Below, one piece after another: positions 1 to 55,810 of a DNA stretch of 64,000 nucleotides. The notes under the pieces were generated by a model. The model was not told the origin of the DNA. It saw only the letters and a list, made by a program, of their open reading frames with translations, and did not search any database. A program made the translations under genes and the position numbers. Each line of letters opens with the position of its first letter. The first letter of the stretch is position 1. Source of the stretch: Patescibacteria group bacterium (GTDB lineage: Bacteria; Patescibacteriota; Minisyncoccia; Phycocordibacterales; JAKAEA01); NCBI GenBank assembly GCA_040387855.1, contig JAZKCY010000001.1, forward strand, positions 445,857 through 509,856, in the 5' to 3' direction.

Positions 1-833
1 TATGTTTCTTGAGGAATCAAATGTGTAAATCGTTTGCATGATTGAGAAAAAGATTTACCTTGATGAAGATCTATATATACTGAAAGAAGCATGTGTTTAT
101 ATTGTGAGTTGAATAATGTAGTATTTGTTAGCCGAACTGCAGCATCAAGAGGCAATCCACCTTTAAGCATTACTCCTATTGATCTTGTGATACGAGCTGA
201 TTGATATAAAATAATAAAACTTTTAATACTAGGGGTTTTGAGAAATATAGAATCTTGAATTTTTTTAATGTGAGCATATTTCTTATGAAGAAATCTATAG
301 AGTACCGTGCAAAAAATACTACCTGAGAGAATATATATTCCGTAATGTACTAAAAATGTACTTAGATATATTAGAAATTGAGTCGACCAAGGCAATGCGG
401 TTTTAAATGTCCGAAATAATGGTTGGATTTTGGGGAAAATAACAAAAAGTAAAAATCCAGACAGCACCAAAGTCATACACCCTATAATAAGCGGATAGAA
501 AAGACTGGAAATAATAGTTTGTTGAAGTTTTTGTTGCTTTGCGAGTGTTTCAGATGCATAGAAAATGTTTTCTTTAAGAGTCCCGCTATGTTCCCCTGCT
601 GTAATGAGTGAATAGGTAAGTGGATCATACTTGAAATGATTTTTAAATATTTCAGATAAAGCAGTGCCTTGCTGCAACAATTGAACTGCAGTTGTCATTG
701 ATGTACGTATACGCTCAGAACCGTATTGTGCTTGAGAGGTAAAGCAGTCTTCAAGTGAAATACCTGCGCGTAATAGAATATACATCTTTTTAAGAAAAGC
801 TATTTGTTGGTTTTTATTCATGATTCTATTCAT
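1..833 (-). CDS. pilC: Type IV pilus / T2SS platform protein PilC/GspF family; partial, C-terminus runs off the window start
   Basis: My own translation of the minus strand gives a continuous ORF from ATG at 833 to the window edge with no stop: MNRIMNKNQQIAFLKKMYILLRAGISLEDCF...SGTLKENIFYASETLAKQQKLQQTIISSLFYPLIIG. This is GspF-like (T2SSF), polytopic membrane. It is absent from the ORF track because it lacks a stop. Its start overlaps the stop of the upstream ATPase gene, the typical pilB-pilC arrangement. Confidence 0.6.
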   Translation of the reverse strand, partial: MNRIMNKNQQIAFLKKMYILLRAGISLEDCFTSQAQYGSERIRTSMTTAVQLLQQGTALSEIFKNHFKYDPLTYSLITAGEHSGTLKENIFYASETLAKQQKLQQTIISSLFYPLIIGCMTLVLSGFLLFVIFPKIQPLFRTFKTALPWSTQFLIYLSTFLVHYGIYILSGSIFCTVLYRFLHKKYAHIKKIQDSIFLKTPSIKSFIILYQSARITRSIGVMLKGGLPLDAAVRLTNTTLFNSQYKHMLLSVYIDLHQGKSFSQSCKRFTHLIPQET

Positions 834-1911
834 AGAGCACTCGCGCTAATTCTTCATGTGTAGTGATTCCTTCCGCAACTAATGTGCTTCCATTATCATG
901 CATTGGAGTCATTGCTTCACGCTCGGCAATTTTTTGAAGTTCAGCACTTGATGTTCTGTTCATAATTGCTGCACGTAAAGCATCAGTAATAACTAGTACT
1001 TCATAAATACCAATCCGTTCTTTGTAGCAGGTGAAATTACATTGTTCGCAACCGGTATTGTTTTTACAGTAAGTACATAATTTACGAACTAATCTTTGAG
1101 CAATAACGATCTCTAATGTAGAAGCAACAAGATATGGATCCACGCCCATATCAAGTAACCGTGGTAATGCCGTTACAGAATTACTCGTATGAATCGTAGA
1201 AAGTAATAGATGCCCAGTAAGTGCAGTATGCACCGCAACATGAGCTGTGTCTGAGTCTCTAATTTCACCAACCATAATGATATCCGGGTCTTGGCGAACT
1301 AGTGCACGTAAACCATTATTAAAATGCAGGTGAGGGCTTACGGGGATTTGTCGTATTCCAGGCAAGGTATATTCCACTGGGTCTTCGAGTGTAATTATTG
1401 CCTGAGTAGAGTTATTAAGCTGTTTTAAAATCGTATACAGTGTTGTGGTTTTGCCAGAACCAGTAGGTCCTGTCACCAAAATCATTCCGTGACGCTTCTT
1501 TAGTGCTCGGCTAATTTTTCCTTCATCAATCTTAGATAATCCTAGTGAAGATAAACTCTGTGCAGCAAACGTTTCTTTTAGTAATCTTATAACAGCATTT
1601 TCTCCATAAAAGGTGGGCAATAGAGAAACGCGTGCTTCTATATATAGACTTGTACTTATACTTATTCTAAGTCTGCCATCTTGAGAAGTGAGATGTTCGT
1701 CAGTTCTCAAACGAGCTCGGATCTTTATAAGTAGAATTAGTTGCTCGTGCAAAAATTTGGGAAGGGGATCTTGGGTTATAAGAATCCCGTCAACACGCAT
1801 CTGAATTTTAATATGATGTTCTGTTGGATCTATATGAATATCCGAGGCATTTTCCTCATATGCACGCTTAAAGATAGTATGGAGTACTTCAGATGCTGAC
1901 TGTTCATGCAT
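826..1911 (-). CDS. pilB: Type II secretion/type IV pilus assembly ATPase, GspE/PilB family (short form lacking the N-terminal domains)
   Basis: Walker A GPTGSGKTTT, Asp box, RVSLLPTFYGENAVIRLL, and a C-terminal tetracysteine motif (CTYCKNNTGCEQC...C) typical of GspE/PilB rather than PilT. Immediately followed by pilC. Confidence 0.75.
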   Translation of the reverse strand: MHEQSASEVLHTIFKRAYEENASDIHIDPTEHHIKIQMRVDGILITQDPLPKFLHEQLILLIKIRARLRTDEHLTSQDGRLRISISTSLYIEARVSLLPTFYGENAVIRLLKETFAAQSLSSLGLSKIDEGKISRALKKRHGMILVTGPTGSGKTTTLYTILKQLNNSTQAIITLEDPVEYTLPGIRQIPVSPHLHFNNGLRALVRQDPDIIMVGEIRDSDTAHVAVHTALTGHLLLSTIHTSNSVTALPRLLDMGVDPYLVASTLEIVIAQRLVRKLCTYCKNNTGCEQCNFTCYKERIGIYEVLVITDALRAAIMNRTSSAELQKIAEREAMTPMHDNGSTLVAEGITTHEELARVLYE

Positions 1912-1975
1912 AAAAAAACTTTACCTCAACTGAGATAAAGTTTTCTTAAAGATTTCTACAAATAAATCTAAAGTT

Positions 1976-2443
1976 TTATGCGAAGAGACTTTCTACAACT
2001 TCTTTGATGTCAGATCCTTCAGCAGCTGTGCCTTTCAATTCTTTTGCAACAGCACCAATAAGCATTCCCATTTTTGCTTTGTCTGTAATTCCAAGTTCTG
2101 CCTTCTTTGCTTCTGCTACTTTCTTGATTTCTTCCTTTGGCATTGCAGCAGGGAGGTATGTTTCTAGAATTGCGAGCTCTGCTTTTTCATCTGCAGCAAG
2201 ATCTTCTCGTCCTCCTTCTACGAACTGAGCGATTGAATCTTTTCGCTGCTTTACCTGGCGCTTAATAACAGTAAGTACTTCTTCATCACTCAATTCTGCC
2301 TGAGGTGTTCGGCCGATAGTAACGAGCTCGTTTGTCATTGCTGCAGAGATTCCCTTAAGAACATTTGTCTTAACTGGGTCCTTTGCGAGCATGGCGGTCT
2401 TAATGCCTGCCTTAATATCTGTTTGAAGTGACATATATATCAA
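1976..2443 (-). CDS. GatB/YqeY domain-containing protein
   Basis: 155 aa with a Lys/Glu/Ala-rich YqeY-like profile (LAILETYLP...). Confidence 0.5.
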   Translation of the reverse strand: MIYMSLQTDIKAGIKTAMLAKDPVKTNVLKGISAAMTNELVTIGRTPQAELSDEEVLTVIKRQVKQRKDSIAQFVEGGREDLAADEKAELAILETYLPAAMPKEEIKKVAEAKKAELGITDKAKMGMLIGAVAKELKGTAAEGSDIKEVVESLFA

Positions 2444-2577
2444 TAATTAATGTGGGATTACTATAGCACGTTTTTTGAATTGAGACAGGTGTAGGTATCA
2501 ATTCAAGAGGCTTTTTAAAGCTCAGCTTGACATATTCAGATTAAGTTGTAATATGTGAAATACTTAAAAATAAATAT

Positions 2578-3696
2578 ATGAAACGATATCACTGGACGGG
2601 AGTTATTGGGCTACTTATTGTCATTGTGTTTCTGCTTGCTACAGCTTTAAAACTAAGCAATCCGACAAGTGAATCAGTTCATATAAATGTAGCTACTATT
2701 GTTACCTATTCATTGTGGATTTGTTTTGGGATTTTCTTAATAGTGAATTATTTTAAAGAGAGAGAATTAGAAGAAAAAGGTGTGATTATACCTGTTCCTG
2801 AACTATCTTCTATAGAAGATAAGGAACAACTAAAAATAAAGAGAAATAGAATATTGGGCTATGTAATGATAGTTGAAATCATTTCATCTGTAAGTTCATT
2901 TATACTAAACGATTACTTAGCGGGATTAACGCTTATTAATATTCTTGTTACGTTTGATTTAATTATTAATATTATATTTGTATTCGTTGTAGTTGAGATT
3001 TTTAGACATAAAGATGTTTCAAAATTGCTCAAGTATACTGTGATTATTTACACTGTGGGTGCTGTAATACTTGGCTCTCTGCGAAGTGATTGGATTTTAA
3101 TTGTTTCTCAGATTTTATTTGGTGGGTATTTTATTTTTGCATTATCGGCTCCTCTCAATCGAAAAAATCACAGAATCGCTCACAAAATTATTCTGCCAGC
3201 TATTATAATTATTATGGTTGCATTGGGCACATATGAAGCAGGCAGAATTATGGGAATGTGGAAGAATCAAAATAAGTTAGATAAAGAATTTGCAAACGCG
3301 AATACAGATGCTGGGACAGCATATACAGCATTTATTCAAAGTCAAAATCCTAATCTTGTTGAAATTGAACGTATACGTGATGCTATGAATCGCCGAAATG
3401 AAAGACTTGAAAATCTTGCTGTAGCAACAATTGAACTCCGTGAAGAATACAATAAGCAATCTAAGAGTGAACAACAGCAATTAGCGCTAAAAAATATCAC
3501 TATTATACTTTCTCTTATTGATCTCAATAGAAAACAGGGTAATGTACTTATTGAATTTATGGACTACTGTGAAGGAATTGATTTACAGAATATTTCTGAA
3601 GAAGAAGGTACTATTATTGGTGGTTATATGACAGGAATTGAATCACTAAATAGTGAAATTCGGGATACTGCTCTAAAGCTTGATTTAAAGAAGTAG
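2578..3696 (+). CDS. Hypothetical polytopic membrane protein with C-terminal coiled coil
   Basis: Several hydrophobic segments in the N-terminal 200 aa; C-terminal region rich in heptad-like E/K/Q/L. Confidence 0.4.
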   Translation: MKRYHWTGVIGLLIVIVFLLATALKLSNPTSESVHINVATIVTYSLWICFGIFLIVNYFKERELEEKGVIIPVPELSSIEDKEQLKIKRNRILGYVMIVEIISSVSSFILNDYLAGLTLINILVTFDLIINIIFVFVVVEIFRHKDVSKLLKYTVIIYTVGAVILGSLRSDWILIVSQILFGGYFIFALSAPLNRKNHRIAHKIILPAIIIIMVALGTYEAGRIMGMWKNQNKLDKEFANANTDAGTAYTAFIQSQNPNLVEIERIRDAMNRRNERLENLAVATIELREEYNKQSKSEQQQLALKNITIILSLIDLNRKQGNVLIEFMDYCEGIDLQNISEEEGTIIGGYMTGIESLNSEIRDTALKLDLKK

Positions 3697-3713: not shown

Positions 3714-4595
3714 TTACTTATTAAACATATTTCCCAAATATGTATCGATTTCTCGTTGATCGAGATCGTAGAAAGATTTATTTTCTGTCTTTAATTTAGT
3801 AGCCAATTCTATTCCTACAAAGCGCCAGTGCCATGGTTCGTACACGTAGAACTTATTGTTGGGAGGATATGAAAGTGTGAATCCATATTTGTGAGCATTT
3901 TCTTTCATCCAGGTAAAAGCATCTGTCTTATCAAAACTAGTTACTAAACCGCCGTTTACTTTTGGACTCGTAAAATCCAGTGTGGTTCCTAGTTGATGTT
4001 CTGAGTATCCTTGATCTGCAGAAAATGCATTTGCTCCAGATCCGTATCGGACAGTGTAACTAGATTTCAAAGATTTTTGCTCATCAAAAGATCGGTAGGC
4101 AGACGCAACTTTAATTGTTACATCTGCTTGCTCAGCATCTGTGAGCATCTTTTGGAGAAAGGGAAGCACTTGATAGAGAATCCCTACTTGATAGGTTCGT
4201 TTTTGATCGGTGAGATATTTTGTATCAATAGGAGCAATATCTGCTGGTTCATAATTTTCGTTCAAGAAAAATACTTTTGAATATTTAGCGAGGAGTTGCG
4301 TATCAAGCTGTCGAAGCCATTCAAGCTTATCCGCTTTTTGAGTTACCGCATTAAGCTGGGTAGCAAATGCTGTGTTTTTACTTGCTGCTTCATTTAATGC
4401 ATTTACCAAATCAAGCTTTTCTTTTTCAGATCGATCGAGACGGGCCTGAAGATCTGTGGTTGATGCCTGTAAATTCTCAATAATTTTTTTATCAGAATTG
4501 TTTGTGTCGCGATTTGTTGAATATTTATAACTTCCAAATAATGTAGCCCCTCCTAATGCGAGCACTAAAAGTGCAATAAATAAATATTTTTTCAC
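3714..4595 (-). CDS. M15 family D-alanyl-D-alanine carboxypeptidase (VanY-like) with N-terminal TM and coiled coil
   Basis: C-terminal SYPPNNKFYVYEPWHWRFVG and LDFTSP motifs typical of VanY/M15B. Apparent GTG start. Confidence 0.65.
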   Translation of the reverse strand: MKKYLFIALLVLALGGATLFGSYKYSTNRDTNNSDKKIIENLQASTTDLQARLDRSEKEKLDLVNALNEAASKNTAFATQLNAVTQKADKLEWLRQLDTQLLAKYSKVFFLNENYEPADIAPIDTKYLTDQKRTYQVGILYQVLPFLQKMLTDAEQADVTIKVASAYRSFDEQKSLKSSYTVRYGSGANAFSADQGYSEHQLGTTLDFTSPKVNGGLVTSFDKTDAFTWMKENAHKYGFTLSYPPNNKFYVYEPWHWRFVGIELATKLKTENKSFYDLDQREIDTYLGNMFNK

Positions 4596-4639
4596 AGAGC
4601 AATTATATCATGGGTTTAGTTTGAGATAAAAAACTAGTA

Positions 4640-4926
4640 TAAAAAAACCGATCGTTAACACGAGCGGCGGGCTTTGTGGTGTTACCTCTCACTTTTCTGA
4701 GGGGTGTGAGCTTCTCGTTCCATACGATCGGCTCGTGAGTTCGCTAGAAGGGCAACGAAACCGGTTATACATGCAATCATCAGTAACCGGAGTAGGTTAA
4801 GCTTCCAGCGGGGAATTGGACAGTCCAAAGGTAGTGCTCCAAAAGATATGGTGAACTAGGGCGACATGCATTATGACATGCTCTGTGTATAAGTCAAATC
4901 AATGTGTGTATAAAAAAACCGTCGTG
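4640..4926 (-). ncRNA. Candidate structured GC-rich RNA or leader between two similar terminator hairpins, upstream of the VanY-like gene
   Basis: About 280 bp, ORF-free, GC-rich. On the minus strand there is TTGACT-N17-CATAAT near 4880-4855, and a hairpin plus U-run at about 4640-4665 (CCG.TCG...CGA.CGG then TTTTTTT). A similar hairpin at 4908-4930 terminates the upstream gene. No match recognised to SRP, tmRNA, RNase P or ydaO consensus. Confidence 0.3.
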
Positions 4927-5535
4927 CTAGACGATCGGAATGAATGTGGAACTGGCGAATTGGTGGTCGTCGGTGAACTCGAGTATCACTGATTCGCCGC
5001 AACCAATGAGTGCCCGAAACGGCATCTCGCTCCATGCGTGTTCAGCGAAGCTCACGAGGGGGTTGTGACTGACCAACAGGGCTGTTTCTTCTAAGCCCAA
5101 GCCTTCCACAACCTTCTTTGATCCCTCGTGTACTCGCAAGATGCAGTTGTCGATGAGCCTCGGCCACATTCTCCGAAGATCAGTTGGAGTAAGCATTGGA
5201 GCGGTGAGCATCGGTCTGTCACCCAGCCACGTGGCGTACTCGTGATCCCATTCGTCGGGGTCACAAGGATCTAAGCTCTCGTTTGGGGTACGTACTGCAC
5301 CGACCTTAAGCCCAAGTGTGTGCACCAGAATCTCCATCGAATCAACTGCCCGAGGGTAGGTGGAACAATGAACTTCTGTGATACAGCCCCAAAGCTTGAG
5401 TCCTTGTGCAGCACGCATCATCTTAAGTCGACCAGGGTTGGTAAGCGGAGCATCGCGCTGCCACACCCCATACTTCCGAACATCAGGCTGGAATTCAGCC
5501 TGACCACATCTCATGACGATGAGATACTTTGACAT
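4927..5535 (-). CDS. Histidine phosphatase superfamily (phosphoglycerate mutase-like) protein; GC-rich
   Basis: N-terminus LIVMRCGQAEF resembles the RHG phosphohistidine motif but has Cys in place of His. GC is much higher than in flanking genes. Confidence 0.45.
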   Translation of the reverse strand: MSKYLIVMRCGQAEFQPDVRKYGVWQRDAPLTNPGRLKMMRAAQGLKLWGCITEVHCSTYPRAVDSMEILVHTLGLKVGAVRTPNESLDPCDPDEWDHEYATWLGDRPMLTAPMLTPTDLRRMWPRLIDNCILRVHEGSKKVVEGLGLEETALLVSHNPLVSFAEHAWSEMPFRALIGCGESVILEFTDDHQFASSTFIPIV

Positions 5536-5574
5536 TGGTTCAGTTCTCCTGCACGGGTTTATCGTTCTGACACT

Positions 5575-6726
5575 GTGTCCTCCAGGAATATACTCATAAA
5601 TCTGAGGCTAGTCAACGTATGTTATACTATTTTTATGACTACGATTCTTATAGTTTTAATTATTGTATTAACTGCAATTTTGGGGGCAATGGTTGCTGTT
5701 ATTTTGAATTTAATGAAACGGCAGGATGAACCAAAAGAAGATATTGGAGTAAAACTATTGCTCGAGCAAATTAATGAATTAAACAGGACTGTAGACGGCA
5801 AAATGAGCGATTTGTCTCGCACTATGGACTTTAAAATTACTGAATCTGGCAAAATGATGAATGAATCCGTGCGTATGCAATTTACTGAATCTTCAAAACT
5901 AATTCAGAATGTGACTTCAGGACTCACAAAGCTCGATGAAACCAATAGACAAGTAGTTTCCTTTGCGGATCAACTTCAAAGTTTGTCAGATATATTGAAA
6001 AATCCAAAACAACGAGGGATTTTAGGTGAATATTATTTAGAGACTCTTTTAAAGAACGTGTTGCCACCAGGAAGCTTTCAAATGCAATATGGCTTTACGG
6101 ATGGCACTATTGTCGATGCTGCGGTGTTTGTGAAAGACAAAGTAATCCCAGTAGATTCTAAGTTTTCACTTGAAAACTATAATAGATTGGTTGAAACAAA
6201 AGATGAATTAGAACGAGATAGGCTTGAAAAAGTATTTGTGAGTGATTTGAAGAAAAGAATAGAAGAAACCTCAAAATATATTCAGCCCAAAGAAGGAACT
6301 ATGGATTTTGCATTCATGTTTATTCCTCATGAAGCTATCTACTATGATTTGCTCACAAATAGAATTGGTGTATTAAAAGAAGAATCTGAAAATTTAATCC
6401 AGAGAGCAGCAAGTAAGTATCACGTAATTATAGTTTCCCCAACAAGCTTTTTGGCATATTTACAGACAGTATTGCAAGGATTGAAAGCACTTCAGATTGA
6501 AGAATCAGTAAAGGGTATTATTAAAAATGTGGGTGAGCTTCAAAAGCATTTAAAGACATACGAGGAATATCATGGAAAGATGGGAAATGCATTGGGAACT
6601 GTCGTAAGTCACTTTAATAATTCTCATAAAGAATTTAAAAAGATAGATAAAGATATCTTAAGAATTTCAGGTGAGTCGCTTCAGATAGAAGCTCTTACAC
6701 TCGATAAGCCAGAAATGGAGGAATAA
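5575..6726 (+). CDS. rmuC: DNA recombination protein RmuC
   Basis: N-terminal TM, long coiled coil, and a C-terminal RmuC-like region (HVIIVSPTSFLAYLQTV). The real start may be the internal Met near 5635. Confidence 0.6.
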   Translation: MSSRNILINLRLVNVCYTIFMTTILIVLIIVLTAILGAMVAVILNLMKRQDEPKEDIGVKLLLEQINELNRTVDGKMSDLSRTMDFKITESGKMMNESVRMQFTESSKLIQNVTSGLTKLDETNRQVVSFADQLQSLSDILKNPKQRGILGEYYLETLLKNVLPPGSFQMQYGFTDGTIVDAAVFVKDKVIPVDSKFSLENYNRLVETKDELERDRLEKVFVSDLKKRIEETSKYIQPKEGTMDFAFMFIPHEAIYYDLLTNRIGVLKEESENLIQRAASKYHVIIVSPTSFLAYLQTVLQGLKALQIEESVKGIIKNVGELQKHLKTYEEYHGKMGNALGTVVSHFNNSHKEFKKIDKDILRISGESLQIEALTLDKPEMEE

Positions 6727-6791
6727 AAAAAGCGTACACCAAAGTGTAGCGCTATCCCATTTTGTTTGTACAATATCTTGCTCTTGATGGG

Positions 6792-7691
6792 TTACCAGAG
6801 CTTGATGGTGAGGCCGACGCCGATTGCACCGTCGAACTCCCTCGAGTCCGACATGCTGGTGATGGGCGTGCCCATCTTCCACACGGGGAGATCCAGCGTG
6901 ATGCTGTCGGAGAGCTTCCACGCGACCCCGCCGCTGTAGAACAGCATGAGGCCCGAATCGAATCCGTAGAAGCCAGGGTCAGCTAGCACCGCGAGCCGGT
7001 GCTGAAAGCTGACGCTCTCGTTGACCTGCCAGATGTGGTTGACCCCCACCTGGACCTGGCCCTCGAACCCTTCGTTGGTCGCGTTCGCGGACAGGTAGGC
7101 CTCGGGCTTCAGGAAGGGCTTGATCGTGTGGCCGTTGCCCAGATCGAGATCTAGGCTCAGCTCGCCGTACATGTAGATCAAGTCGCCCTTGGTCCCGCTT
7201 AGAAGCCGGGGGGCGGCGAGATCGAAGTACGACACGCCAACGTTCACGTTGACGTCACGTACTTTGCCGACCCACCCGAGGGTGTAGTCGACCTCGTCCC
7301 CGAAATTGGAGTTGAGGTTGGCGTCGTCGAGCCCGGCGGAGTGCCAGAGATCGATGTAGACGCCGTTAGGGAACGTCACGAACACGTCGGACTGCAGCAC
7401 CGGATCGGTGTGGTAGACCGATCCGTTTGCCCCGTAGTACTGAGACCACAGACGGGTCGTCAGCACGACGGACGGGTGAGGGGCCCCTTTGAACACCTCA
7501 TCCGGCTTCCGCGGTTCGTCGGCCTTCTTCGGCGCGACGGTGGGGTCGGTGTGCTCATGCACTCCGCCGCCAGTCGACTTCTCGGTCTTGATCTGCTCGA
7601 ACCGCTCGAGCCCGTCGTTCTGGTTGCCGTTGCAACCCAACAGGAACGACAGGCCGAGCACCAACGCCGCAACGTACATTCGCGTACGCAT
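6792..7691 (-). CDS. Lipoprotein with outer-membrane beta-barrel-like features; GC-rich (about 60%)
   Basis: Signal peptide with lipobox LLGC, alternating hydrophobic beta-strand patterns (VNVNVGVSYFDL), and a C-terminus ending ...GVGLTIKLW with an aromatic terminal residue as in OMPs. GC is far above the window background. Confidence 0.5.
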   Translation of the reverse strand: MRTRMYVAALVLGLSFLLGCNGNQNDGLERFEQIKTEKSTGGGVHEHTDPTVAPKKADEPRKPDEVFKGAPHPSVVLTTRLWSQYYGANGSVYHTDPVLQSDVFVTFPNGVYIDLWHSAGLDDANLNSNFGDEVDYTLGWVGKVRDVNVNVGVSYFDLAAPRLLSGTKGDLIYMYGELSLDLDLGNGHTIKPFLKPEAYLSANATNEGFEGQVQVGVNHIWQVNESVSFQHRLAVLADPGFYGFDSGLMLFYSGGVAWKLSDSITLDLPVWKMGTPITSMSDSREFDGAIGVGLTIKLW

Positions 7692-7917
7692 AAACGATAC
7701 CTTCTCCCCACAAATGGGGCTTCCGAAACCATAGGGACATTACAAATCCGTTTGTGAAACTAACATAAATCTATAGATGAGTCAATAGTGCCATTCCCAT
7801 ATACGAAAAGGCCCACACAATCTAATGTGTGGCCTCTATTCCTTTCTTTTGTAAAAGGTTGTTTATTGAAACGAAAGAACGATGTAGTGCGTTGAACTTA
7901 CTAGGTTTCTTCTCTTC

Positions 7918-8475
7918 TTAGGCTTTTTCCATCGAGCGCCTGGCGCACAAGGCGAGGACTGTGAAGAATAGGATAGCCACAGCTCCGATCACGAGTACCC
8001 TAACTTGTACGGATGTCAAAATGACCTGAGTGCCGATGACGCTGGTGAGTAGGGTAAGCGGGACGACGAGTCCTGCCACCAACATCATCTTTCCAACTAA
8101 GCTCACGATCTTCATATCGTCTCCACGCGGGAATCCTCCGAGGAAGGTTCCTAACGTGAGGAATCCGAGCATGAGGCCGTAGTGGCCTGATGTGCGGATG
8201 AACATCTCCCACTGATAGTCGTACTGACCGACTATCCATGGAATGAAGACATGCAGAGCTGTGAAGACAAAGAATGTGCCATATAGGGCTTTCATCATCT
8301 TCGAGATAGCGGGGCGCATTCTCATCATCAGAGTGCTCGGCTGGCTTGCTTTTGACTCGGTTTCCTCAGCCGGTTTGAGCATGGCTCTTGTAGCAATTGC
8401 TGCTAGAACTAGCAGAAACGCCATAAAGGCCAAGCCGACGGTCATCGCCATCAAATTCTGATGCTCCTGACTCAT
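7918..8475 (-). CDS. Hypothetical integral membrane protein (about 5 TM); elevated GC
   Basis: Hydrophobic segments throughout; no recognised family. Confidence 0.4.
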   Translation of the reverse strand: MSQEHQNLMAMTVGLAFMAFLLVLAAIATRAMLKPAEETESKASQPSTLMMRMRPAISKMMKALYGTFFVFTALHVFIPWIVGQYDYQWEMFIRTSGHYGLMLGFLTLGTFLGGFPRGDDMKIVSLVGKMMLVAGLVVPLTLLTSVIGTQVILTSVQVRVLVIGAVAILFFTVLALCARRSMEKA

Positions 8476-9038: not shown

Positions 9039-9323
9039 TTGCGAAATGCACGAAGTGTTCTTTTGTTCTTTCTCGGAGTGTTCGGAATGGTGTCTTCCCC
9101 TCAACCAATGACTGGATCAGACAAACAAAGGTTGGTACGAGAGTACCAGCACGAGCGGCTCAATGAGCTGAGTCTCCAGTCCATCATCAATGACGAGAAT
9201 TCGTCTGCGGCGGAAGTTGCGGCTGCTCGAGAGGTGCTACACAGCATTGAGCAGCAGCAGCAGAACTACCAGAACCATGTCGCGCGGCGGCAGGATCTAC
9301 AAATCGTCATTGACGATTCATAA
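9039..9323 (+). CDS. Hypothetical small protein; elevated GC; start uncertain
   Basis: 94-aa ORF with a Gln-rich tail (EQQQQNYQNH); no recognised family. Confidence 0.3.
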   Translation: MRNARSVLLFFLGVFGMVSSPQPMTGSDKQRLVREYQHERLNELSLQSIINDENSSAAEVAAAREVLHSIEQQQQNYQNHVARRQDLQIVIDDS

Positions 9324-9997: not shown

Positions 9998-10005
9998 AAT
10001 AGGAA

Positions 10006-11433
10006 TTAGAAATCATCATCACCACCACCGCTACCACCCACATCACCTCGATTTGATGCATCAATAGAAAGGAAGGTCGTCTTCTTATCATCGAAGTACA
10101 ATTCGATAAGACCTGTTGGACCGTTTCGATGCTTTTCAATAAGAATTTCGGCAATGTTTTGTCGAGCACCTTCAGCTTTGTTTTGCTTATCTTCTCGGTG
10201 AATAAACATAACCACGTCGGCGTCCTGTTCGATAGAACCTGAGTCTCGAAGGTCGGATAGTCGTGGACGTCCTCCTCGTTGTTCCACGGCTCGAGAAAGC
10301 TGTGAAAGGGCAATCACTGGTACTTCCATTTCTCGCGCCAGTTGCTTGAGCGATCGAGAAATTTCTGTAACCTGTTGCACCACGTTGTCGTTTTTGCCTG
10401 CATTTGTGGGAGCCATGAGCTGCAAGTAGTCCACAATAATCATACCCAAACCTTTATCGGCTTTGAGTCGTCGAGCAACAGATCGCATTTTCAAAATGTT
10501 GTTTGCAGGCTGGTCATCAATAAAGATTGGAGCTTTTGCCAATCGATCGATAGCACCTCGCATTGCTTCAAAGTCTTGTTCAACAATATTTTTACCGGTT
10601 CGGAGTTTCCAAGAGTCCACACGTGATTCTGCGGCAAGAAGACGGTCTACCAATTGTTGTGAACTCATTTCAAGAGAAAAAATACCTACGGGCACATTGT
10701 GCATCACAGCAGCTTGTCGAGCGATATCGAGGGCGAACGAAGTTTTACCCATAGATGGTCGAGCGGCGAGAATGATGAGATCTGATTTTTGGAATCCTGC
10801 GAGTTTGTTATCCAAATCTTTAAAGCCTGTTGGTACACCGCGCATTTCCTCAGTGTTTTTACTGAGCTTATCGAGTCGGTCCCAGGCTTCACTAAGTGTT
10901 TCATTAAGCTGGATAAACCGCTGAGAACTTGAGAAGTTGGTAACTTCAAAAATTTTCTTTTCAGCAGTATCAAGCATCTGCTCGATATCTATTGTTTCAT
11001 CGTATCCAAGACTAGAAATATCTTCAGCACTTTCAATGAGCTTTCTCATCAAATGCTTTTTCTGCACAATTTCAGCATAGTGCTTTACGTTTGATGCTGA
11101 TGGCACCATGTTTACAAGCTCGGTGAGAAATGTAGCTCCACCTACGTTATCCAACACACCTTGATCACGAAGAACTGCAGAAAGAGAAAGCAAGTCAATG
11201 GGAGTTGATTTCGTAAACAACTCATTCATGTGTTTGTACACAATGCGATGCTTTTGAGAATAGAATGAATCTTCTTTAATGAAGTCCAAAATTTCATGCA
11301 TCACATCAGGACGGAGCATGATAGAACCAAGGAGTGCCATTTCGGCGTCGATACTTTGTGGAGGGACTCGTAGATACGGAGTCTTCTTTTCTTCCTTAGG
11401 AGGATATTTACTAAATTTTTTGAATTCGGCCAT
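10006..11433 (-). CDS. dnaB: Replicative DNA helicase DnaB
   Basis: N-terminal DnaB domain (QSIDAEMALLGSIML) and a RecA-like C-domain with Walker A ARPSMGKTSFAL. Length 475 aa, so no intein. Confidence 0.9.
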   Translation of the reverse strand: MAEFKKFSKYPPKEEKKTPYLRVPPQSIDAEMALLGSIMLRPDVMHEILDFIKEDSFYSQKHRIVYKHMNELFTKSTPIDLLSLSAVLRDQGVLDNVGGATFLTELVNMVPSASNVKHYAEIVQKKHLMRKLIESAEDISSLGYDETIDIEQMLDTAEKKIFEVTNFSSSQRFIQLNETLSEAWDRLDKLSKNTEEMRGVPTGFKDLDNKLAGFQKSDLIILAARPSMGKTSFALDIARQAAVMHNVPVGIFSLEMSSQQLVDRLLAAESRVDSWKLRTGKNIVEQDFEAMRGAIDRLAKAPIFIDDQPANNILKMRSVARRLKADKGLGMIIVDYLQLMAPTNAGKNDNVVQQVTEISRSLKQLAREMEVPVIALSQLSRAVEQRGGRPRLSDLRDSGSIEQDADVVMFIHREDKQNKAEGARQNIAEILIEKHRNGPTGLIELYFDDKKTTFLSIDASNRGDVGGSGGGDDDF

Positions 11434-20159: not shown

Positions 20160-20567
20160 CTACGTCAGATTCCATGCGGCAGCTGCTTCGAATGGCTCCA
20201 GCTTCTTTAAGAGCTCTGGGATATCGCGTGCCACTGCTTCGAGCATCTGAGGCAAGTGTGTGAACACCAACTCCACATACTCACGCGCGATAGTTGGATT
20301 GTTGTTCTTTGTCGACGTTAAGAACAACTCGTTTGCTCCGTGGTGGCAGCTGATTGCTGCGTACCTAGCTCCAGGTTCGAAATACACAGACCAGTACAGA
20401 GTGCCTGTCGTGTATTTGTAGCTGCAACGCTCGGTTCCTGGAAGCTCTAGGAGTAGCCCCATGAGTATCTTTGACGTTGAGCCGATCCGGTACTTCATGA
20501 TGTCGAGGGCGTTAGAACCATCGATCATGACACTCATCAGCTGTTTGCCGTTCATCTTGCTGTGCAT
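20160..20567 (-). CDS. Hypothetical protein; GC-rich islet
   Basis: 135-aa ORF, GC about 50%; no family recognised. Confidence 0.35.
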   Translation of the reverse strand: MHSKMNGKQLMSVMIDGSNALDIMKYRIGSTSKILMGLLLELPGTERCSYKYTTGTLYWSVYFEPGARYAAISCHHGANELFLTSTKNNNPTIAREYVELVFTHLPQMLEAVARDIPELLKKLEPFEAAAAWNLT

Positions 20568-20714: not shown

Positions 20715-21374
20715 CTATCGTGGCGCATGCTTTACTCCGCCGTACTTGCTCGTAACGAAGGTCACCCAGGATGGATGATCGACATCTCGATCGGCAGCGA
20801 TCCATGCATCGTACCACCGCTGACACAAGGGACTTAGAATTTGTCCGTAGTTTTGGACCCACGGAACCATTCCGTACTCGGAAGTCTTTCCCCAGGTCAG
20901 CCGCTCGTACTCGATGAGAGCTGGGATGTCGCCGGGTGCGCAATCGGTCCAGCCGTTTGCGAGATGATCGAGCTCATGAAGCACACCCATGACGATCACT
21001 GATTGCCACATTGCATCACAGTTGATCCCATCCAACTTCTGCCTGATTGCATACTGTCGTTCAAGGGCAGGCATGTACAAATCGATGATGGGGATTCCGT
21101 TTCGTGCTGTGTTGGACATGCTGATCATCTTCTGATCACCAGCATAGGCCGGATGGTCAACGGCTATCACCTTGAGGTCGATGGGCCTTCCGTAGCACCT
21201 GCTGATCGTCAGGCGGTGGGAATCGAATCGCCGCTGAATCAGCTCGAGCGGGTAGGTGCACGAGATCAGCAGGTTGAGGATGGGCCCGATCCTCTGGTTG
21301 TAGAAATCCAACAACGCTGGGGGGAACACTTGTTCAGACATAGGATGCTTGCACTTTCTTTTTGGGAGTGACAT
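20715..21374 (-). CDS. Hypothetical protein with HExxH motif (possible zinc metallopeptidase-like); GC-rich islet; start uncertain
   Basis: VIVMGVLHELDHLANGW contains HELDH. The ORF track start at 21434 is probably too long; Met candidates at 21374 and 21341. Confidence 0.35.
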   Translation of the reverse strand: MSLPKRKCKHPMSEQVFPPALLDFYNQRIGPILNLLISCTYPLELIQRRFDSHRLTISRCYGRPIDLKVIAVDHPAYAGDQKMISMSNTARNGIPIIDLYMPALERQYAIRQKLDGINCDAMWQSVIVMGVLHELDHLANGWTDCAPGDIPALIEYERLTWGKTSEYGMVPWVQNYGQILSPLCQRWYDAWIAADRDVDHPSWVTFVTSKYGGVKHAPR

Positions 21375-21425
21375 ATCGGCAAGTGCCGAACCAAGGTGGA
21401 AAATAACACAATATTTGTAAAAAGT

Positions 21426-21466
21426 CAAAAACAAAAAACAGCCCCTCCGGGCTGCTTTTGTTTTTC
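21426..21466. terminator. Bidirectional terminator hairpin (CAGCCC-CTCC-GGGCTG) with flanking A- and T-runs
   Basis: Lies downstream of the minus-strand PMM gene and bounds the GC islet. Confidence 0.6.
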
Positions 21467-27777: not shown

Positions 27778-28365
27778 ATGAAAAGGTTCGGTGTAGGGTA
27801 TATAGTAGTTTTTCTTCTCGTATATTGTTTTCCATTACATAGTGAGGATATAACTCTTGATGTTTCAAAAGTAGCAGAAAAGGCGGTACCTATTGTTTCT
27901 GCAGATATCATCGAACCTAAACGTCTACTTATCCCAGCTTTAAAAGTATTGTCACCAATCGTAGGAATGGGACAAACTCCAGAGGGTAGAATGGCGGTGC
28001 CTGATAATTATACTGAAGTTGGTTGGTACAATCTTGGAACTCGGCCAGGGGCTATTGGTAGTGCTGTTATGGGTGCACATGTTGATAATGGGAGTACTCT
28101 TCATGGTGTATTTAAGAACCTTAAAAAGCTTAAAATAGGAGATGATATTTATGTACTCGATCAGTTTAATAACGCCTTGCATTATAGGGTAACTGAAAAA
28201 ACTATCTATCCTTATAGATCTAAAGATACAGAGAAAGTATTTTCTCGAAATGATGCTCGTAGATTAAATTTAATTACCTGTTATGGTACATGGTTACCAA
28301 AAGAAAACACTTACGATCGGAGATTGGTGATATTTGCTGAGCTTGTTAAAAAACAGAAATTATAA
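27778..28365 (+). CDS. Sortase family transpeptidase
   Basis: N-terminal TM, catalytic His region (MGAHVDNGS) and the LITCYG (TLxTC) active-site cysteine motif. Confidence 0.75.
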   Translation: MKRFGVGYIVVFLLVYCFPLHSEDITLDVSKVAEKAVPIVSADIIEPKRLLIPALKVLSPIVGMGQTPEGRMAVPDNYTEVGWYNLGTRPGAIGSAVMGAHVDNGSTLHGVFKNLKKLKIGDDIYVLDQFNNALHYRVTEKTIYPYRSKDTEKVFSRNDARRLNLITCYGTWLPKENTYDRRLVIFAELVKKQKL

Positions 28366-39915: not shown

Positions 39916-40290
39916 ATGGTGTATGGTATACCTATGAACAAAGAATCAATGAGCAAGGACTCCCCTTTGGAGAATTCCCGATCGCAAATGCGCAAAGGTA
40001 TTTTGGAGTTTTGTATATTATTAATTATCGCCCGTGGTCGTATTTATTCTTCTGAAATTTTGCTCCAGCTCAAGGATGCAGATTTGCTGGTAGTGGAGGG
40101 GACTCTCTATCCCCTGCTCAGTCGCCTAAAGACTCAAGGCTTGCTCGAACATTCATGGGAAGAATCAAAGTCTGGTCCCCCACGAAAATATTTTACCCTT
40201 ACAAATAAAGGCCACGATACATTGAAAGAACTGAAAGCTACATGGAAAATTCTCTCAGCTTCTATACACTCACTCATTAACAATAAATAA
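39916..40290 (+). CDS. PadR family transcriptional regulator
   Basis: ILEFCILLIIARGRIYSSEILLQLKD...EGTLYPLLSRLKTQGLLEHSWEES is the PadR winged-helix signature. Confidence 0.8.
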   Translation: MVYGIPMNKESMSKDSPLENSRSQMRKGILEFCILLIIARGRIYSSEILLQLKDADLLVVEGTLYPLLSRLKTQGLLEHSWEESKSGPPRKYFTLTNKGHDTLKELKATWKILSASIHSLINNK

Positions 40291-40291
40291 T

Positions 40292-41980
40292 ATGAAAAAA
40301 GCTTTAACAATAACTATAGCCGGTACCCTCTTTACTATTGAGGAAGATGCATATCAAAAACTTGATGTGTATTTAAAATCTATTCAAAATTATTTTGGTA
40401 CAAGTGCTGAGGGTAAAGAAATTATAGAAGACATTGAGGCACGAATTGCCGAACAGCTTTTAGAAAATAAAACGGTTGCTGGTGTTGTTACTATTGAAGC
40501 TATCGAAAAGCTCATGACAACGATGGGAAGTGTTGAAGACTTTGGTGACAAGCCAGAATCTACAGGTACAGCATCGGAGAGTTCTAATGAAGACCCTACA
40601 GCGTCACGAAAGCTGTACAGAGATACTGATGATGTGGTGATTGCTGGTGTTGCTTCAGGTATCGCACACTATATAAAAGTTGATCCGCTCTTTGTTCGTC
40701 TTGGATTTATTGTCCTCACACTTATCACTTCTGGATTTTGGATTGTACTCTATATAATTCTTGCACTCATTGTTCCTAAAGCAGAAACAGCAGCAGAAAA
40801 AATGCAGCAGCGAGGAGGACCTGTTACCCTATCTTCATTTAAAGAAACGATAAAGAAAAATAGCGAGGAGTATATGCAGCGGTCATCAAAGCTTCGCACA
40901 ATACTAGAAAGACTTATCAGAGTATTTGGAAAGATTGTTGTAGTGTTTGTTAAAATTATTATAGGTTTAATTGCTATTAGTCTTATTGCTGGTGCATTAT
41001 TTGGATTAATTACTGCAACATTTACCTATGCCAATCTTATCTTCAATAGTAATTCTACGTATGTAGGGTTCCCTATAACAGAAGTTATTGGAGGACTGGC
41101 CCTCTTTGGATTGTCTACATTCTATTTTATTGCTGTAGCAATTCCACTTATTGTTATTGCGCTTTTGGGAGTAATGATGATTCGCCGAAAGAAAGTAGTT
41201 GGTATGCGATCAAGCGCTATCTTAGCTGGTGTGTGGGCATTGTCATTAATTATGGCTGGTACACTTTCAGTTAAATATATTCCACAAATTCATGATCATC
41301 TTGAGTCAATGCCAGAGAATCAAAGAGTAACTGAAACTCAGGCTATTACTCAGCCTTTTACCAAGCTCGATCTTAATGGATTTGAAAAAGTAAAATTTGT
41401 TCAAGCATCTACAACCTCAATTGTAGAAGAAGGACGTCGTGCTGATGTAGATGAGACAAAGTTTGAAGTGAAAGATGGAACACTTACTTTACAACGAGAT
41501 ATTCAAAATGAGTTTTGCTTGTTCTGTGATCGGGATAGTGTCGACATTATTATTTCTGCACCATTTGTAGATCGAATAGATATTACAGATAATATTCGTT
41601 TTCAAAGTGATGATATTCGTGGGGAAAAAGTGACTGTCGTAGTAGAAGATGTAGCACGAGCTGATATGAAAGTAGATGTTCGAGAATTAGTAGTTATAAC
41701 GCAGGGAGTTGCACGTGCTCATATTACAGGAACTTCAACATCGATGGGACTAACTCTAGAAGATGCTTCTCGTTTTGAAGGTGATACTATGAATGTGAGA
41801 GATGCATCTGTTAAGGCTTCTGGAGTTTCTCGTGCGTACGTACATGTAGATGCAACTCTCCATATTGATGCAGAGGATGTAAGCAGAGTTGAATACACTG
41901 GTACAGCAGAACCCACAATCATAGATAGTGATAATGCAAGAGTTGAACGAATGGATGCTGTAGAAGCTAGAACTGATTAA
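40292..41980 (+). CDS. PspC domain membrane protein with C-terminal DUF4097/DUF2807-like (adhesin-head-like beta) domain
   Basis: DVVIAGVASGIAHYIKVDPLFVRLGFIVLTL is the PspC domain. Multiple TM segments, and a C-terminal repetitive beta-rich region (VDVRELVVITQGVARAHITG...). This is the classic PadR-PspC-DUF4097 gene order. Confidence 0.6.
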   Translation: MKKALTITIAGTLFTIEEDAYQKLDVYLKSIQNYFGTSAEGKEIIEDIEARIAEQLLENKTVAGVVTIEAIEKLMTTMGSVEDFGDKPESTGTASESSNEDPTASRKLYRDTDDVVIAGVASGIAHYIKVDPLFVRLGFIVLTLITSGFWIVLYIILALIVPKAETAAEKMQQRGGPVTLSSFKETIKKNSEEYMQRSSKLRTILERLIRVFGKIVVVFVKIIIGLIAISLIAGALFGLITATFTYANLIFNSNSTYVGFPITEVIGGLALFGLSTFYFIAVAIPLIVIALLGVMMIRRKKVVGMRSSAILAGVWALSLIMAGTLSVKYIPQIHDHLESMPENQRVTETQAITQPFTKLDLNGFEKVKFVQASTTSIVEEGRRADVDETKFEVKDGTLTLQRDIQNEFCLFCDRDSVDIIISAPFVDRIDITDNIRFQSDDIRGEKVTVVVEDVARADMKVDVRELVVITQGVARAHITGTSTSMGLTLEDASRFEGDTMNVRDASVKASGVSRAYVHVDATLHIDAEDVSRVEYTGTAEPTIIDSDNARVERMDAVEARTD

Positions 41981-43872
41981 GTACTAAGTGCTTTCAAGAC
42001 TTCGCTTAATTTTATTTTAGCAAAGCATGATACTTTGTCTGCGCCACCGTAATAGATAAAGATATTATCGCCACGTACTACTGCCCCACAAGGAAATACT
42101 ACGTTATTAATTTCTCCAATAAGTTCATATTGTTCAATAGGTTCAAATAAATGATCAGTCATTCGTGCAGTAACGATCATAGGGTCTTTTAGATCAAGCA
42201 TTAATGCACTTGTGCGATAAATGCCATCATCTGAAATGCCATGGTAAAGCATAAGCCAGCCTTGCTTTGTCTTGATAGGAGGACATGAAAGACCAACTTT
42301 TTTGCTGTCCCACATTCCTGGTCGTGGGGTTAGAATCGGTGTGTATTCTTTTACTCTTTTTGGATTCTTTAAATCAATATAACTAGCAACAATATTGTGA
42401 TCAATACGATGAATCATGAGATTCTTGCCATTTTTAGTAAACGGCATAATGCATGAATCTTTATCATCAATTCCCTCTGGAGAAATAAGAACGGGTTTAG
42501 TCCATTCCCAATCGTGATTGAGAAAATCTTCTGTTGAAATGCTACTAAGAGCAACTGCTGGTGCATCTGTTCCGTTGTATGCTGTGTATGTGATATAGAG
42601 TCTGTCACCTATTTCAACTATTCGTGCATCTTCACATCCTGAATTGCCATTGGGTATATTTTTACTTTCAAAGCTTTCTCGTGGGGTGTAAATAGGATAC
42701 GGCAATCGCTCATCAATCTTTGTTCCGTTTTTTGATGATGCATATCCTACTGTTGAAGTATTATCCATAGACCATGCTCTATAGAGAATGTGGATTTTTC
42801 CATCAAGATCAATTGCTGCAGGATTGAATACTGCTCTATCTTCCCACTTTTCTTTTGTTGGAGAAAGAATTGGGTTGGAAGGCAATCGTAATATCTTTTT
42901 TGAAGGATGATCCAACATTGTTTGCAGTAAATCATCAACATTCACATATGCAACTGCTGTTGTCGTATCTGTAGCTCCATAAAAGATATAAAGTGTCTCA
43001 TCTTCTATTAATGCACCGGATGGAAAAATTGTTTTCGGTACAGTTCCGTATATTTCATAATGCTCTTCTGGAACAAGAAGTGGACCTTTTGTGCGAGCAA
43101 TAACTTTTTGTGGATCTTTGAGATCAAGTAAGACAGCTTCAATACCGAATATCTTTTCTTCAGAATAATAATTTTGAATGTGAGAATAAATAATAAGCCA
43201 GCCGTGTTTAGTCTTGATTGGTGTTGATCCTACTTCAATCTGATCGGTTGGTTTTCGTTTGAGATCCGTAATAAGGTGATCATCTATTTTGTCATGCCAT
43301 GTATTCCAAAATTTCTCTGACCACATATCTTCTTCTTTTGAAAATTGTGCAATTGCAATCTTTGAAGGCGGTTCATCAGTATGAGCAGAAAGAATAACCG
43401 TATATTTGCCGTTAATCTTTTCCGGGAAGAGGGCCATTGCTTTTGCATTAAATGGCGTAACTAAATGTTTTTCTCGTACTGTTTCTAGATCATCACTCAA
43501 TGCTACGGCAACTTTAATTCCCCGAGCGCCAAATGGAAATGTAGAAAGTGCAGTATAAAACGTGTAGTAAGTCTTTCCTAATTTTGTTACGCGAGGATCT
43601 TCGCATCCATAACGTTCCCAAGCTTCTGTAGGTTCTATAAATACCTGTCTGTTTTTATAATCCGCGCCATTGGTACTTACTGCCTTATAAATAGTGGATA
43701 AAGAAAAGTTCGTATTCTCAAATCGCTCTGGAGTAGTCTGTGCTCGATACAAAATATGAGTACGAGTTCCAATTTTGATTGGACTCGCATTAAATGCAGC
43801 ATATGCTTCATGAGCATTTGTTGTGTCGGGAGAAAGTATGGGATTTTGTTTTGATCGATGGACCGTATACAT
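41977..43872 (-). CDS. Tandem double-domain GH130-like (DUF377, beta-mannoside phosphorylase-like) glycosidase
   Basis: Two copies of the (F/A)FN(P/A)..I..(D)G..HILYRA block (AFNASPIKIGTRTHILYRA; VFNPAAIDLDGKIHILYRA). 631 aa. Confidence 0.5.
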   Translation of the reverse strand: MYTVHRSKQNPILSPDTTNAHEAYAAFNASPIKIGTRTHILYRAQTTPERFENTNFSLSTIYKAVSTNGADYKNRQVFIEPTEAWERYGCEDPRVTKLGKTYYTFYTALSTFPFGARGIKVAVALSDDLETVREKHLVTPFNAKAMALFPEKINGKYTVILSAHTDEPPSKIAIAQFSKEEDMWSEKFWNTWHDKIDDHLITDLKRKPTDQIEVGSTPIKTKHGWLIIYSHIQNYYSEEKIFGIEAVLLDLKDPQKVIARTKGPLLVPEEHYEIYGTVPKTIFPSGALIEDETLYIFYGATDTTTAVAYVNVDDLLQTMLDHPSKKILRLPSNPILSPTKEKWEDRAVFNPAAIDLDGKIHILYRAWSMDNTSTVGYASSKNGTKIDERLPYPIYTPRESFESKNIPNGNSGCEDARIVEIGDRLYITYTAYNGTDAPAVALSSISTEDFLNHDWEWTKPVLISPEGIDDKDSCIMPFTKNGKNLMIHRIDHNIVASYIDLKNPKRVKEYTPILTPRPGMWDSKKVGLSCPPIKTKQGWLMLYHGISDDGIYRTSALMLDLKDPMIVTARMTDHLFEPIEQYELIGEINNVVFPCGAVVRGDNIFIYYGGADKVSCFAKIKLSEVLKALST

Positions 43873-43878
43873 AGAATT

Positions 43879-49074: not shown

Positions 49075-49106
49075 GGCATTCGCTCTTTAGAAACTCAAAC
49101 TGAGGA

Positions 49107-55764: not shown

Positions 55765-55810
55765 GTTTTTTGTGATGATATGTGGCTCTTTTGTTATGTT
55801 GTAAGTATAG

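Follow-up and report, generated by a model that had tools for sequence, protein, structure and literature searches.

The closest described relatives of the protein reported here are the TorF/Gcw_chp putative porins (PF09694, TIGR02001), a family defined from Proteobacteria or other diderms whose function is itself just predicted. Our subject, called the target below, is a 299-residue protein encoded on the minus strand of a 64-kb window (the whole stretch of 64,000 nucleotides that was analysed, from contig JAZKCY010000001.1) of a metagenome-assembled genome (MAG) of a Patescibacteria group bacterium. Like TorF/Gcw_chp proteins, members of the target family combine a signal peptide with a beta-rich domain of ~225-250 residues and an aromatic C-terminal end. 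The target differs in having its own W-H-S-x-G-L-D motif and in a lipobox and 50-residue linker that replace the plain signal peptide, and the labelled members of its subfamily are found in Patescibacteria, not in Proteobacteria. On the evidence set out below, we consider it probable that the target gene is an intact, recently imported lipoprotein-type barrel gene, related to TorF/Gcw_chp and belonging to a horizontally circulating accessory family.

Other described outer-membrane barrels resemble the target in architecture. Its best size-matched structural neighbours are the 12-stranded monomeric porins of the KdgM/NanC type (PDB 2wjq and 8xua), with ~205-210 residues superposed at a TM-score of 0.63-0.65 (normalised to the target chain), an identity of 11-12% and no Pfam match; this is a likeness of architecture rather than evidence of homology. 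The lowest Foldseek E values (2e-7 to 8e-7) were obtained with FapF and autotransporter beta-domains (PDB 5o68, 3aeh and 3kvn), which, like the target, place 12 strands behind an N-terminal segment, and weak matches to the Pfam Autotransporter domain were seen in two family members. Unlike these proteins, the target has neither a passenger domain nor a plug helix but a disordered linker only, the root mean square deviation is 7-11 A, and no amyloid or autotransporter operon partners lie near its gene. A lipobox Cys and a barrel domain are joined in one polypeptide in the NodT/OprM-type lipidated outer-membrane barrels of diderms, which are trimeric alpha/beta channels serving efflux pumps in bacteria with Lol and the beta-barrel assembly machinery (BAM). 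The target, in comparison, belongs to a phylum described as monoderm, and its barrel is small and of the monomer type.

Porin-like barrels in Patescibacteria received no mention in the open-access reviews and papers that we searched, and these likewise held nothing on Gcw_chp. The superfamily is known, and the barrel gene is one of its divergent members. Novelty lies in the lipidated and tethered form, in a subfamily with labelled members from Patescibacteria alone, and in its occurrence as single-gene, GC-deviant, non-syntenic insertions.

Relationship to TorF/Gcw_chp putative porins

The target is identical to NCBI entry V4519_02515 (P0001), a hypothetical protein of a Patescibacteria group MAG encoded on a contig of 981,549 bp. 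An exhaustive phmmer scan covering 1.84 billion representatives returned 661 relatives of the target, 47 of them below 1e-30. The best relatives (E 1e-45 to 1e-30) are 38-41% identical to it and none exceeds ~41%; the ten best are each cluster singletons and lie on short contigs. In a typical relative, of ~250 residues, a beta-rich domain of ~225 residues comes after a signal peptide. Alignment of the family revealed the motif W-H-S-x-G-L-D...S-[ND]-F-G-D-E-[VI]-D which in the target reads W-H-S-x-G-L-D...S-N-F-G-D-E-V-D, together with a C-terminal L-W in the target. The C-terminal residue is F in 117 of the 158 relatives retrieved, and aromatic (F, Y or W) in 128. A word-indexed homolog search yielded 2 weak relatives with the target alone, 10 with a 42-sequence profile and 1 with a profile trimmed to a 66-column core.

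The link to the described porins runs through intermediate sequences. Pfam Gcw_chp was matched by 28 of the 42 aligned members (best E 4e-8) and TIGR02001, 'TorF family putative porin', by 22 (best E 2e-9), and two proteins, P0120 and P0122, scored above the Pfam Gcw_chp cut-off. Judged by these sequence comparisons, the target and the TorF/Gcw_chp putative porins are divergent relatives.

Some members of the family carry an additional domain. About nine proteins of ~480 aa (P0055, P0069, P0100, P0118, P0120, P0122, P0141, P0142 and P0149) fuse a conserved N-terminal multi-transmembrane (multi-TM) domain of ~240 residues, of no known family, to the barrel. At locus L030, a 415-aa protein weakly similar to this domain (E about 1e-4) is encoded just 5' of the barrel gene and overlaps it. 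These arrangements suggest that the membrane domain and the barrel may form a two-part module that is sometimes fused. The 185-aa membrane protein encoded directly upstream of the target gene was considered as a counterpart of the barrel-associated membrane proteins found elsewhere, and was rejected for want of similarity. In three loci that are unrelated (L025, L034 and L029), the barrel gene has a TrmB-family regulator gene nearby, which in two of them is divergent from a pair made up of an unknown membrane protein and the barrel. No TrmB-family regulator is found near the barrel gene of the window.

Predicted lipoprotein signal and barrel fold

A first-pass annotation, made from the DNA alone, had described the open reading frame (ORF) exactly as we find it and had proposed an outer-membrane-barrel-like lipoprotein. 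Its reading of the N-terminus as a lipobox signal peptide agreed with a pattern search: the sequence MRTRMYVAALVLGLSFLLGC matches the lipoprotein pattern {DERK}(6)-[LIVMFWSTAG](2)-[LIVMFYSTAGCQ]-[AGS]-C (equivalent to PROSITE PS51257). The lipobox Cys is residue 20, within the position range of 15-35 for such cysteines, and R at residues 2 and 4 gives a positive N-terminus ahead of the hydrophobic stretch. A helix was predicted at residues 2-19 by AlphaFold2 (AF2). The C-terminus, ...GVGLTIKLW, also ends as had been stated.

When AF2 was run with a shallow alignment of 10 sequences, residues 70-299 were modelled with a predicted local distance difference test score (pLDDT) of about 80-91 as 12 long antiparallel strands, between which turns of 2-4 residues and loops of 7-15 alternate. 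Disorder was predicted for residues 19-69 (pLDDT < 50). This linker is an insertion relative to the family in our alignment (A1), and most members are without it. A search of the PDB with Foldseek returned outer-membrane barrels for all of the top 50 matches (probability 1.00) and no soluble fold; they included FapF (E 2e-7), NanC (TMt 0.63), the VhGalP oligogalacturonate porin (TMt 0.65), the Hbp and EstA autotransporter domains, and OmpG. A Sec-type N-terminal signal, an even number of strands, long loops with short turns and a C-terminal aromatic residue, all features of outer-membrane barrels, are thus present in the predicted protein. The amphipathic strand patterning noticed at first was evident in all 12 predicted strands of the target, each with one hydrophobic and one polar face, and also across 181 family sequences, where charged residues made up 4.4% of one strand face against 23.8% of the other. 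The two faces did not differ in conservation (p = 0.73), so that conservation does not settle the orientation of the strands. Taken together, the models indicate that the protein is composed of a lipobox signal, a ~50-residue tether and a predicted 12-stranded outer-membrane-type barrel related to TorF/Gcw_chp, in line with the barrel product first proposed.

The same features could be looked for in a soluble secreted beta-protein, a sandwich or lipocalin-like fold anchored as a lipoprotein, that is not a membrane barrel at all. The dyad pattern alone cannot separate a lipid-facing surface from a hydrophobic core, AF2 found no confident fold from the single sequence (pLDDT 36), and the producer is without an outer membrane. 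However, the alignment-based model has 12 long strands in canonical outer-membrane topology, all 50 best structural matches are membrane barrels, the transitive homology leads to putative porins, and F, Y or W ends the protein across the family. The first-pass annotation had named, as an outcome that would tell against it, best homologs that are soluble beta-sandwich proteins of related organisms. The best homologs do come from related organisms, but are predicted barrels and not sandwiches; the sandwich itself found no support in the fold matches, and we regard a soluble protein as a remote alternative.

Composition and probable recent acquisition of the gene

The barrel gene has the highest GC content of the window genes, as had been noted, at 62% compared to 38.8% for the window. 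The GC contents of the three codon positions in the barrel frame, 0.60/0.40/0.87, are the coding signature of a GC-rich genome, and the value at third positions (GC3) of 0.87 compares with 0.282 +/- 0.054 in 59 native-looking genes (z = 10.9). Followed in 30-nt steps, composition shifted at a distance of ~30 nt or less from the start codon and from the stop codon, the foreign GC-rich segment starting at about 7730. On a related 82-kb contig, L026, which shares 58% RmuC identity with the window, no barrel gene adjoins rmuC. With deviant composition, sharp borders and a related contig without the gene at this site, the barrel gene was acquired horizontally, and recently; its un-ameliorated GC3 points to a very recent arrival. 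The proposal of recent transfer from a diderm stands for the transfer and its recency, which composition supports, but not for the diderm donor; the labelled target-like relatives are all Patescibacteria.

Signal, linker and barrel alike have a GC3 of 0.80-0.88. As all three parts are of one donor type, the whole unit was imported and neither lipobox nor tether was added later, which refutes the idea that a transferred protein had been repurposed by gain of a lipobox. The window copy would have arrived as a unit of ~940 bp, with the 5' untranslated region (UTR) and its ribosome-binding site, signal, linker and barrel together; its landing site would have had the rmuC terminator on one side and a native-type promoter region on the other. 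The hairpin downstream of the barrel gene is probably a bidirectional terminator common to it and the convergent rmuC; it was not called by the terminator scan because its stem has a bulge. On the other side, a terminator-like hairpin sits between the upstream gene and the barrel gene, and the -35 context of the promoter-like site resembles the region 5' of the neighbouring gene (repeat D18).

No meaningful flanking direct or inverted repeats, integrase, tRNA or Rfam element was found at the insert. A phage or plasmid origin was rejected after searches of viral contigs, PHROGs, phage DNA and, by tblastn, plasmids gave no match. Our most economical guess is uptake by natural competence followed by illegitimate recombination. 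Competence genes are reported to be enriched in Patescibacteria (PMC11665869).

A compositional jump this extreme raises the question of contamination, that is, of a 0.94 kb GC-rich piece of another organism joined by the assembler. The protein is a singleton cluster known from one contig only; a second assembly of the window junctions was not found, the exact protein being absent from the gene-position index. The insert is flanked on both sides by CPR (candidate phyla radiation) genes in one 981-kb contig, and amounts to precisely one whole ORF and its ribosome-binding site, with a terminator on one side and a promoter-like site on the other. A like arrangement, with a barrel gene of higher GC between core genes, recurs in many independent assemblies, including six contigs of the L026 type. 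An insert that respects gene boundaries and a pattern that recurs independently make contamination or chimerism, which the first-pass annotation had listed, unlikely, and we give it a very small probability.

Relatives in other Patescibacteria

We scanned one genome for each of 185,579 species with a short motif taken from the alignment, and found eight loci. Four are target-like over the whole barrel and belong to MAGs labelled Saccharibacteria (two), Paceibacterota and Patescibacteria group. A more distant second subfamily is represented in Moraniibacteriota, Patescibacteria, an unclassified 'bacterium' and a MAG labelled Gammaproteobacteria. Two metagenome relatives came from 0.1-um groundwater fractions. 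As the labelled target-like relatives are all in other Patescibacteria MAGs, the window gene is a member of an accessory family and no one-off oddity. A lipobox is present in several CPR copies, L003 (LCVGC), L004 (FAGC), L016 and P0003; most other members have ordinary signal peptides.

Comparison of gene neighbourhoods revealed no synteny among the loci (Table 1). Among the neighbours, the isoleucyl-tRNA synthetase (IleRS) encoded beside the L004 copy, in the Paceibacterota MAG, is a protein of 1176 aa with a His_Phos_1 domain (residues 505-663, E 1e-32) inside its catalytic domain. Gene GC exceeded flank GC in 15 of 18 independent target-like loci, by a mean of 8 points (Wilcoxon p = 5e-4). 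A second case, equal to the window in extremity, is the L032 copy (P0003), a lipobox and linker barrel gene with a GC3 of 0.83 that adjoins SNase and HAD hydrolase genes. The best reading of this distribution is a rare, horizontally circulating accessory barrel family in CPR that is newly arrived in this genome. The distribution points to repeated spread from GC-richer sources, plausibly by natural competence.

Descent from a diderm CPR ancestor would offer another route to a family found in several CPR classes, and CPR are thought to have descended from diderms that lost their outer membrane, as a review describes. A vertical relic should not, however, lie 10.9 standard deviations in GC3 from its genome, nor occupy loci without synteny. 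Contig L026 has no copy beside rmuC and carries a different, decayed copy elsewhere, and the L003 and L004 proteins, from different CPR classes, are 58% identical, against ~35% for most pairs. This explanation is barely credible.

Selection, decay and the transient-passenger alternative

Signs both of use and of loss were seen in other members of the family. The barrel genes of L003 and L016 have a ratio of nonsynonymous to synonymous divergence (dN/dS) of 0.15 at a dS of 0.47. Gene, promoter and 5' UTR are 88% identical in nucleotide sequence between the two contigs and the upstream genes differ; the common promoter, GGCACTTGACT-17-TA[CT]AAT, is strong. This is, judged from the sequences, purifying selection within a CPR lineage. 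Both are Saccharibacteria-type contigs with a lineage-specific recurrent terminator repeat (core CCGCGCACCACTTGAGTGCGCGG and a T-run, up to 38 nt). The 38-nt repeat was considered as a cassette end and rejected, being a recurrent terminator hairpin. On L026, and also on L027 and L028, the barrel homolog is split into ORFs of 131 and 83 aa, with a GC3 of 0.63 against 0.38 in the flanks. Six contigs, each type of sample differing, carried the split L026-type copy, which is, from its sequence, a decaying pseudogene.

A very recent arrival may be a simple transient passenger. In that case the gene is what we describe, yet is non-functional baggage that will be lost, as a monoderm cannot assemble an outer-membrane barrel. 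The un-ameliorated GC3, the singleton cluster, the split copy in a related genome, the weak promoter, the lack of other lipobox proteins in the window and the ~12 other GC-deviant window genes, which suggest frequent uptake of foreign DNA, all agree with this. Set against it are the intact 299-codon ORF with a good ribosome-binding site and terminators, the recurrence of the family across several CPR classes, and the Saccharibacteria-type pair under purifying selection with its conserved strong promoter. The window copy is too recent for its intactness to say much on use. We consider a passenger doubtful, though a serious contender.

Several observations weigh against an imported, functional barrel lipoprotein of Patescibacteria. 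The target itself scores 12.1 bits against Gcw_chp, where the cut-off is 24 (E 0.19), and has no NCBIfam match. Its structure was predicted from a shallow alignment, and closure of the barrel and the outward position of the hydrophobic face, as modelled, rest on the fold matches. Taxonomy is in hand for just a handful of the 661 relatives, the scan motif was drawn from a CPR-biased alignment, some of the MAG contigs are short and could be mis-binned, and the related second subfamily occurs in a Gammaproteobacteria-labelled MAG (L010/L025). In the 53-62% GC contigs L012, L013 and L018, gene GC matches the flanks; these organisms are candidate reservoirs and could be diderm donors. The promoter-like site of the window copy reaches 8/12, under the threshold of the promoter scan, and is hence unlisted there. 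No other lipobox protein was found among the ~70 genes of the window, and a monoderm would not be expected to have BAM-type assembly machinery.

Cell envelope and possible function

In reviews, the Patescibacteria are described as monoderm, the outer membrane and porins having been lost from the phylum; a monoderm envelope is also what the first-pass annotation had assumed from the sortase and PspC genes nearby. Domain searches confirmed both genes, the sortase with an E value of 2e-19 (PF04203). A type IV pilin-like gene is also present in the window. Neither lgt nor lspA was seen in the 64-kb window, which is part of the 981-kb contig. A conserved C-terminal aromatic residue is a hallmark of BAM-dependent assembly. 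Such a residue is odd in monoderms; either a diderm reservoir or constraints on barrel closure could lie behind it.

If the signal acts as predicted, the protein would be exported by Sec and processed by signal peptidase II; with a lipid on Cys20, it would stay at the outer face of the cytoplasmic membrane, from which the tether could display the barrel at up to about 15 nm. A beta-barrel is not expected in the cell's own cytoplasmic membrane. The barrel might then serve as a small pore or an anchor in a lipid layer other than that membrane, and a pore or anchor is our leading inference for its function. A role in an unrecognised outer layer and a non-membrane role are further possibilities.

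A more specific version is that the barrel, tethered or, in forms with signal peptidase I signals, secreted, inserts in the outer membrane of a host at the contact site and acts as a nutrient conduit or in attachment. A transmembrane-type fold made by a monoderm would fit this, as would the tethering devices, namely lipobox and linker (target, P0003, L003 and L004) or multi-TM fusion (the ~480-aa forms), and the selection on the Saccharibacteria-type pair. In vitro, BAM is not needed for small outer-membrane proteins to fold into bilayers. Acquisition of nutrients from hosts by CPR is an acknowledged open question (PMC11665869). Against a host-directed barrel, the distribution is patchy with one copy decayed, and the C-terminal aromatic residue marks assembly by BAM in the producer, not self-insertion. 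The known hosts of Saccharibacteria are Actinobacteria, mostly without an outer membrane. We consider this version decidedly unlikely.

Other genes and composition of the window

Coordinates of all features are collected in Table 1. About 12 of the 72 ORFs of the window have a GC3 of 0.49-0.87, compared to 0.28 for the rest, and are interleaved singly with core genes (rmuC, rplU, recR, dnaB and lexA). They include a His_Phos_1 phosphatase, the 185-aa multi-TM protein mentioned above and a 118-aa Sigma70_r4 protein. This mosaic suggests frequent uptake of foreign DNA, one gene at a time.

Other window genes were noted in passing. A GC-rich 117-aa ORF with the repeats …GGRAAHAQG…GQKGGQRV…GRAGGKK… resembles, by eye, a KGG-type general stress protein, and adjoins a LexA-like gene. 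No Pfam, Rfam or tRNA match was obtained for a 1.2 kb segment of about 54% GC in which ORFs overlap on both strands. The 562-aa PspC-domain protein ends in a fused DUF2807 domain ('putative auto-transporter adhesin head GIN'), and its gene is preceded by a small PadR-like gene. Two large GH130-domain proteins (621 and 631 aa) are encoded in tandem in this genome of otherwise minimal metabolism; the Pfam description of GH130 is beta-1,4-mannooligosaccharide phosphorylase.

Table 1. Features of the barrel locus, of the window and of loci with related barrel genes. GC-deviant, gene of deviating GC3.
Sequence	Feature	Position	Strand	Remarks
Window	Complete CDS of the barrel gene	6792..7691	-	299 aa and stop; lipoprotein-type beta-barrel protein (predicted); GC 62%, GC3 0.87; flank GC 38%; adjoins rmuC
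Window	Signal peptide and lipobox, residues 1-20, LSFLLG/C	7632..7691	-	Cys20 codon 7632-7634; GC3 0.80
Window	Disordered polar linker, residues 21-72, NGNQNDG...KPDEVFKGAPH	7476..7631	-	GC3 0.87
Window	Barrel domain, residues 73-299, 12 strands	6795..7475	-	AF2 model, Foldseek, dyad hydrophobicity, family alignment
Window	Shine-Dalgarno-like GGAGAAGG	7700..7707	-	8 nt 5' of ATG; sequence reading
Window	Small hairpin CCCCA-TTTG-TGGGG	7706-7719		partly overlaps Shine-Dalgarno-like site; sequence reading
Window	Weak promoter-like site TTGACT-17 nt-TAGTTT, TG at -15/-14	7757..7785	-	low-GC native-type spacer; by eye
Window	Terminator-like hairpin of upstream gene	7813..7832	-	terminator scan
Window	Hairpin GCGCTACAC-TTTG-GTGTACGC, then T7 on minus strand	6725..6752	.	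native low-GC sequence; sequence reading
Window	rmuC	5575-6726	+	convergent with barrel gene
Window	GC-deviant	4927-5535		
Window	GC-deviant; upstream gene, 185-aa multi-TM protein	7918-8475		
Window	GC-deviant	9039-9323		
Window	GC-deviant	20160-20567		
Window	GC-deviant	20715-21434		
Window	GC-deviant; 1.2 kb segment of about 54% GC	49095-50294		
Window	GC-deviant	52190-52546		
Window	GC-deviant	55744-56524		
Window	Sortase	27778-28365		
Window	PadR-like gene	39916-40290		
Window	PspC-domain protein	40292-41980	+	
Window	Two GH130-domain proteins	41977-45744	-	
Window	LexA-like gene	55189-55854		
Window	117-aa ORF	55906-56259	-	
L001/L011	Barrel gene			adjoins nitroreductase
L003	Barrel gene			between NYN and hydrolase genes; gene GC 56%, flank GC 46%
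L003	Barrel gene, promoter and 5' UTR shared with L016	4827-5690		
L003	Terminator repeat copy (38 nt)	4034-4071		
L003	Terminator repeat copy (23 nt)	5796-5818		
L016	Barrel gene, promoter and 5' UTR shared with L003	779-1278		
L016	Terminator repeat copy	162-207		
L016	Terminator repeat copy	754-789		
L004	Barrel gene			between RNase J and IleRS; gene GC 49%, flank GC 35%
L004	IleRS	4157-7687	-	
L015	Barrel gene			gene GC 52%, flank GC 37%
L025	Barrel gene and TrmB-family gene	4443-6654		
L026	Split barrel homolog	10001-10717		between uvrA and uvrC; gene GC 51%, flank GC 42%
L029	Barrel gene and TrmB-family gene	1026-6030		gene GC 51%, flank GC 40%
L030	Multi-TM-like protein and barrel gene	5199-7146		
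L032	Barrel gene (P0003)	1946-2809		gene GC 63%, flank GC 42%
L034	Barrel gene and TrmB-family gene	317-2782		

Implications

A large part of bacterial diversity belongs to the Patescibacteria, which are treated as monoderms and rely on hosts through largely obscure mechanisms. Recurrence of the barrel family in such a phylum is unexpected. About one window gene in six is compositionally foreign and placed singly between core genes, a measure of flux in a genome of ~1 Mb. Our boldest extension, a long shot, is that Patescibacteria keep, and exchange among themselves, dedicated 12-stranded barrels that are secreted or leashed after Sec export. The membrane entered would be the outer one of the host, or else an outer lipid layer of the epibiont that has gone unrecognised, and the barrel would there be a pore or anchor at the site of contact. 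If true, such barrels would be a part of the feeding or attachment apparatus of epibionts that has so far escaped notice.

The barrel family may thus have one of three meanings: a tool for the membrane of another cell, CPR envelopes that are not simply monoderm, or the repeated uptake of genes that cannot be used. The first two would bear on epibiont feeding and on the loss and gain of outer membranes, and the third on how fast, and how neutrally, DNA is taken up in streamlined genomes with natural competence.

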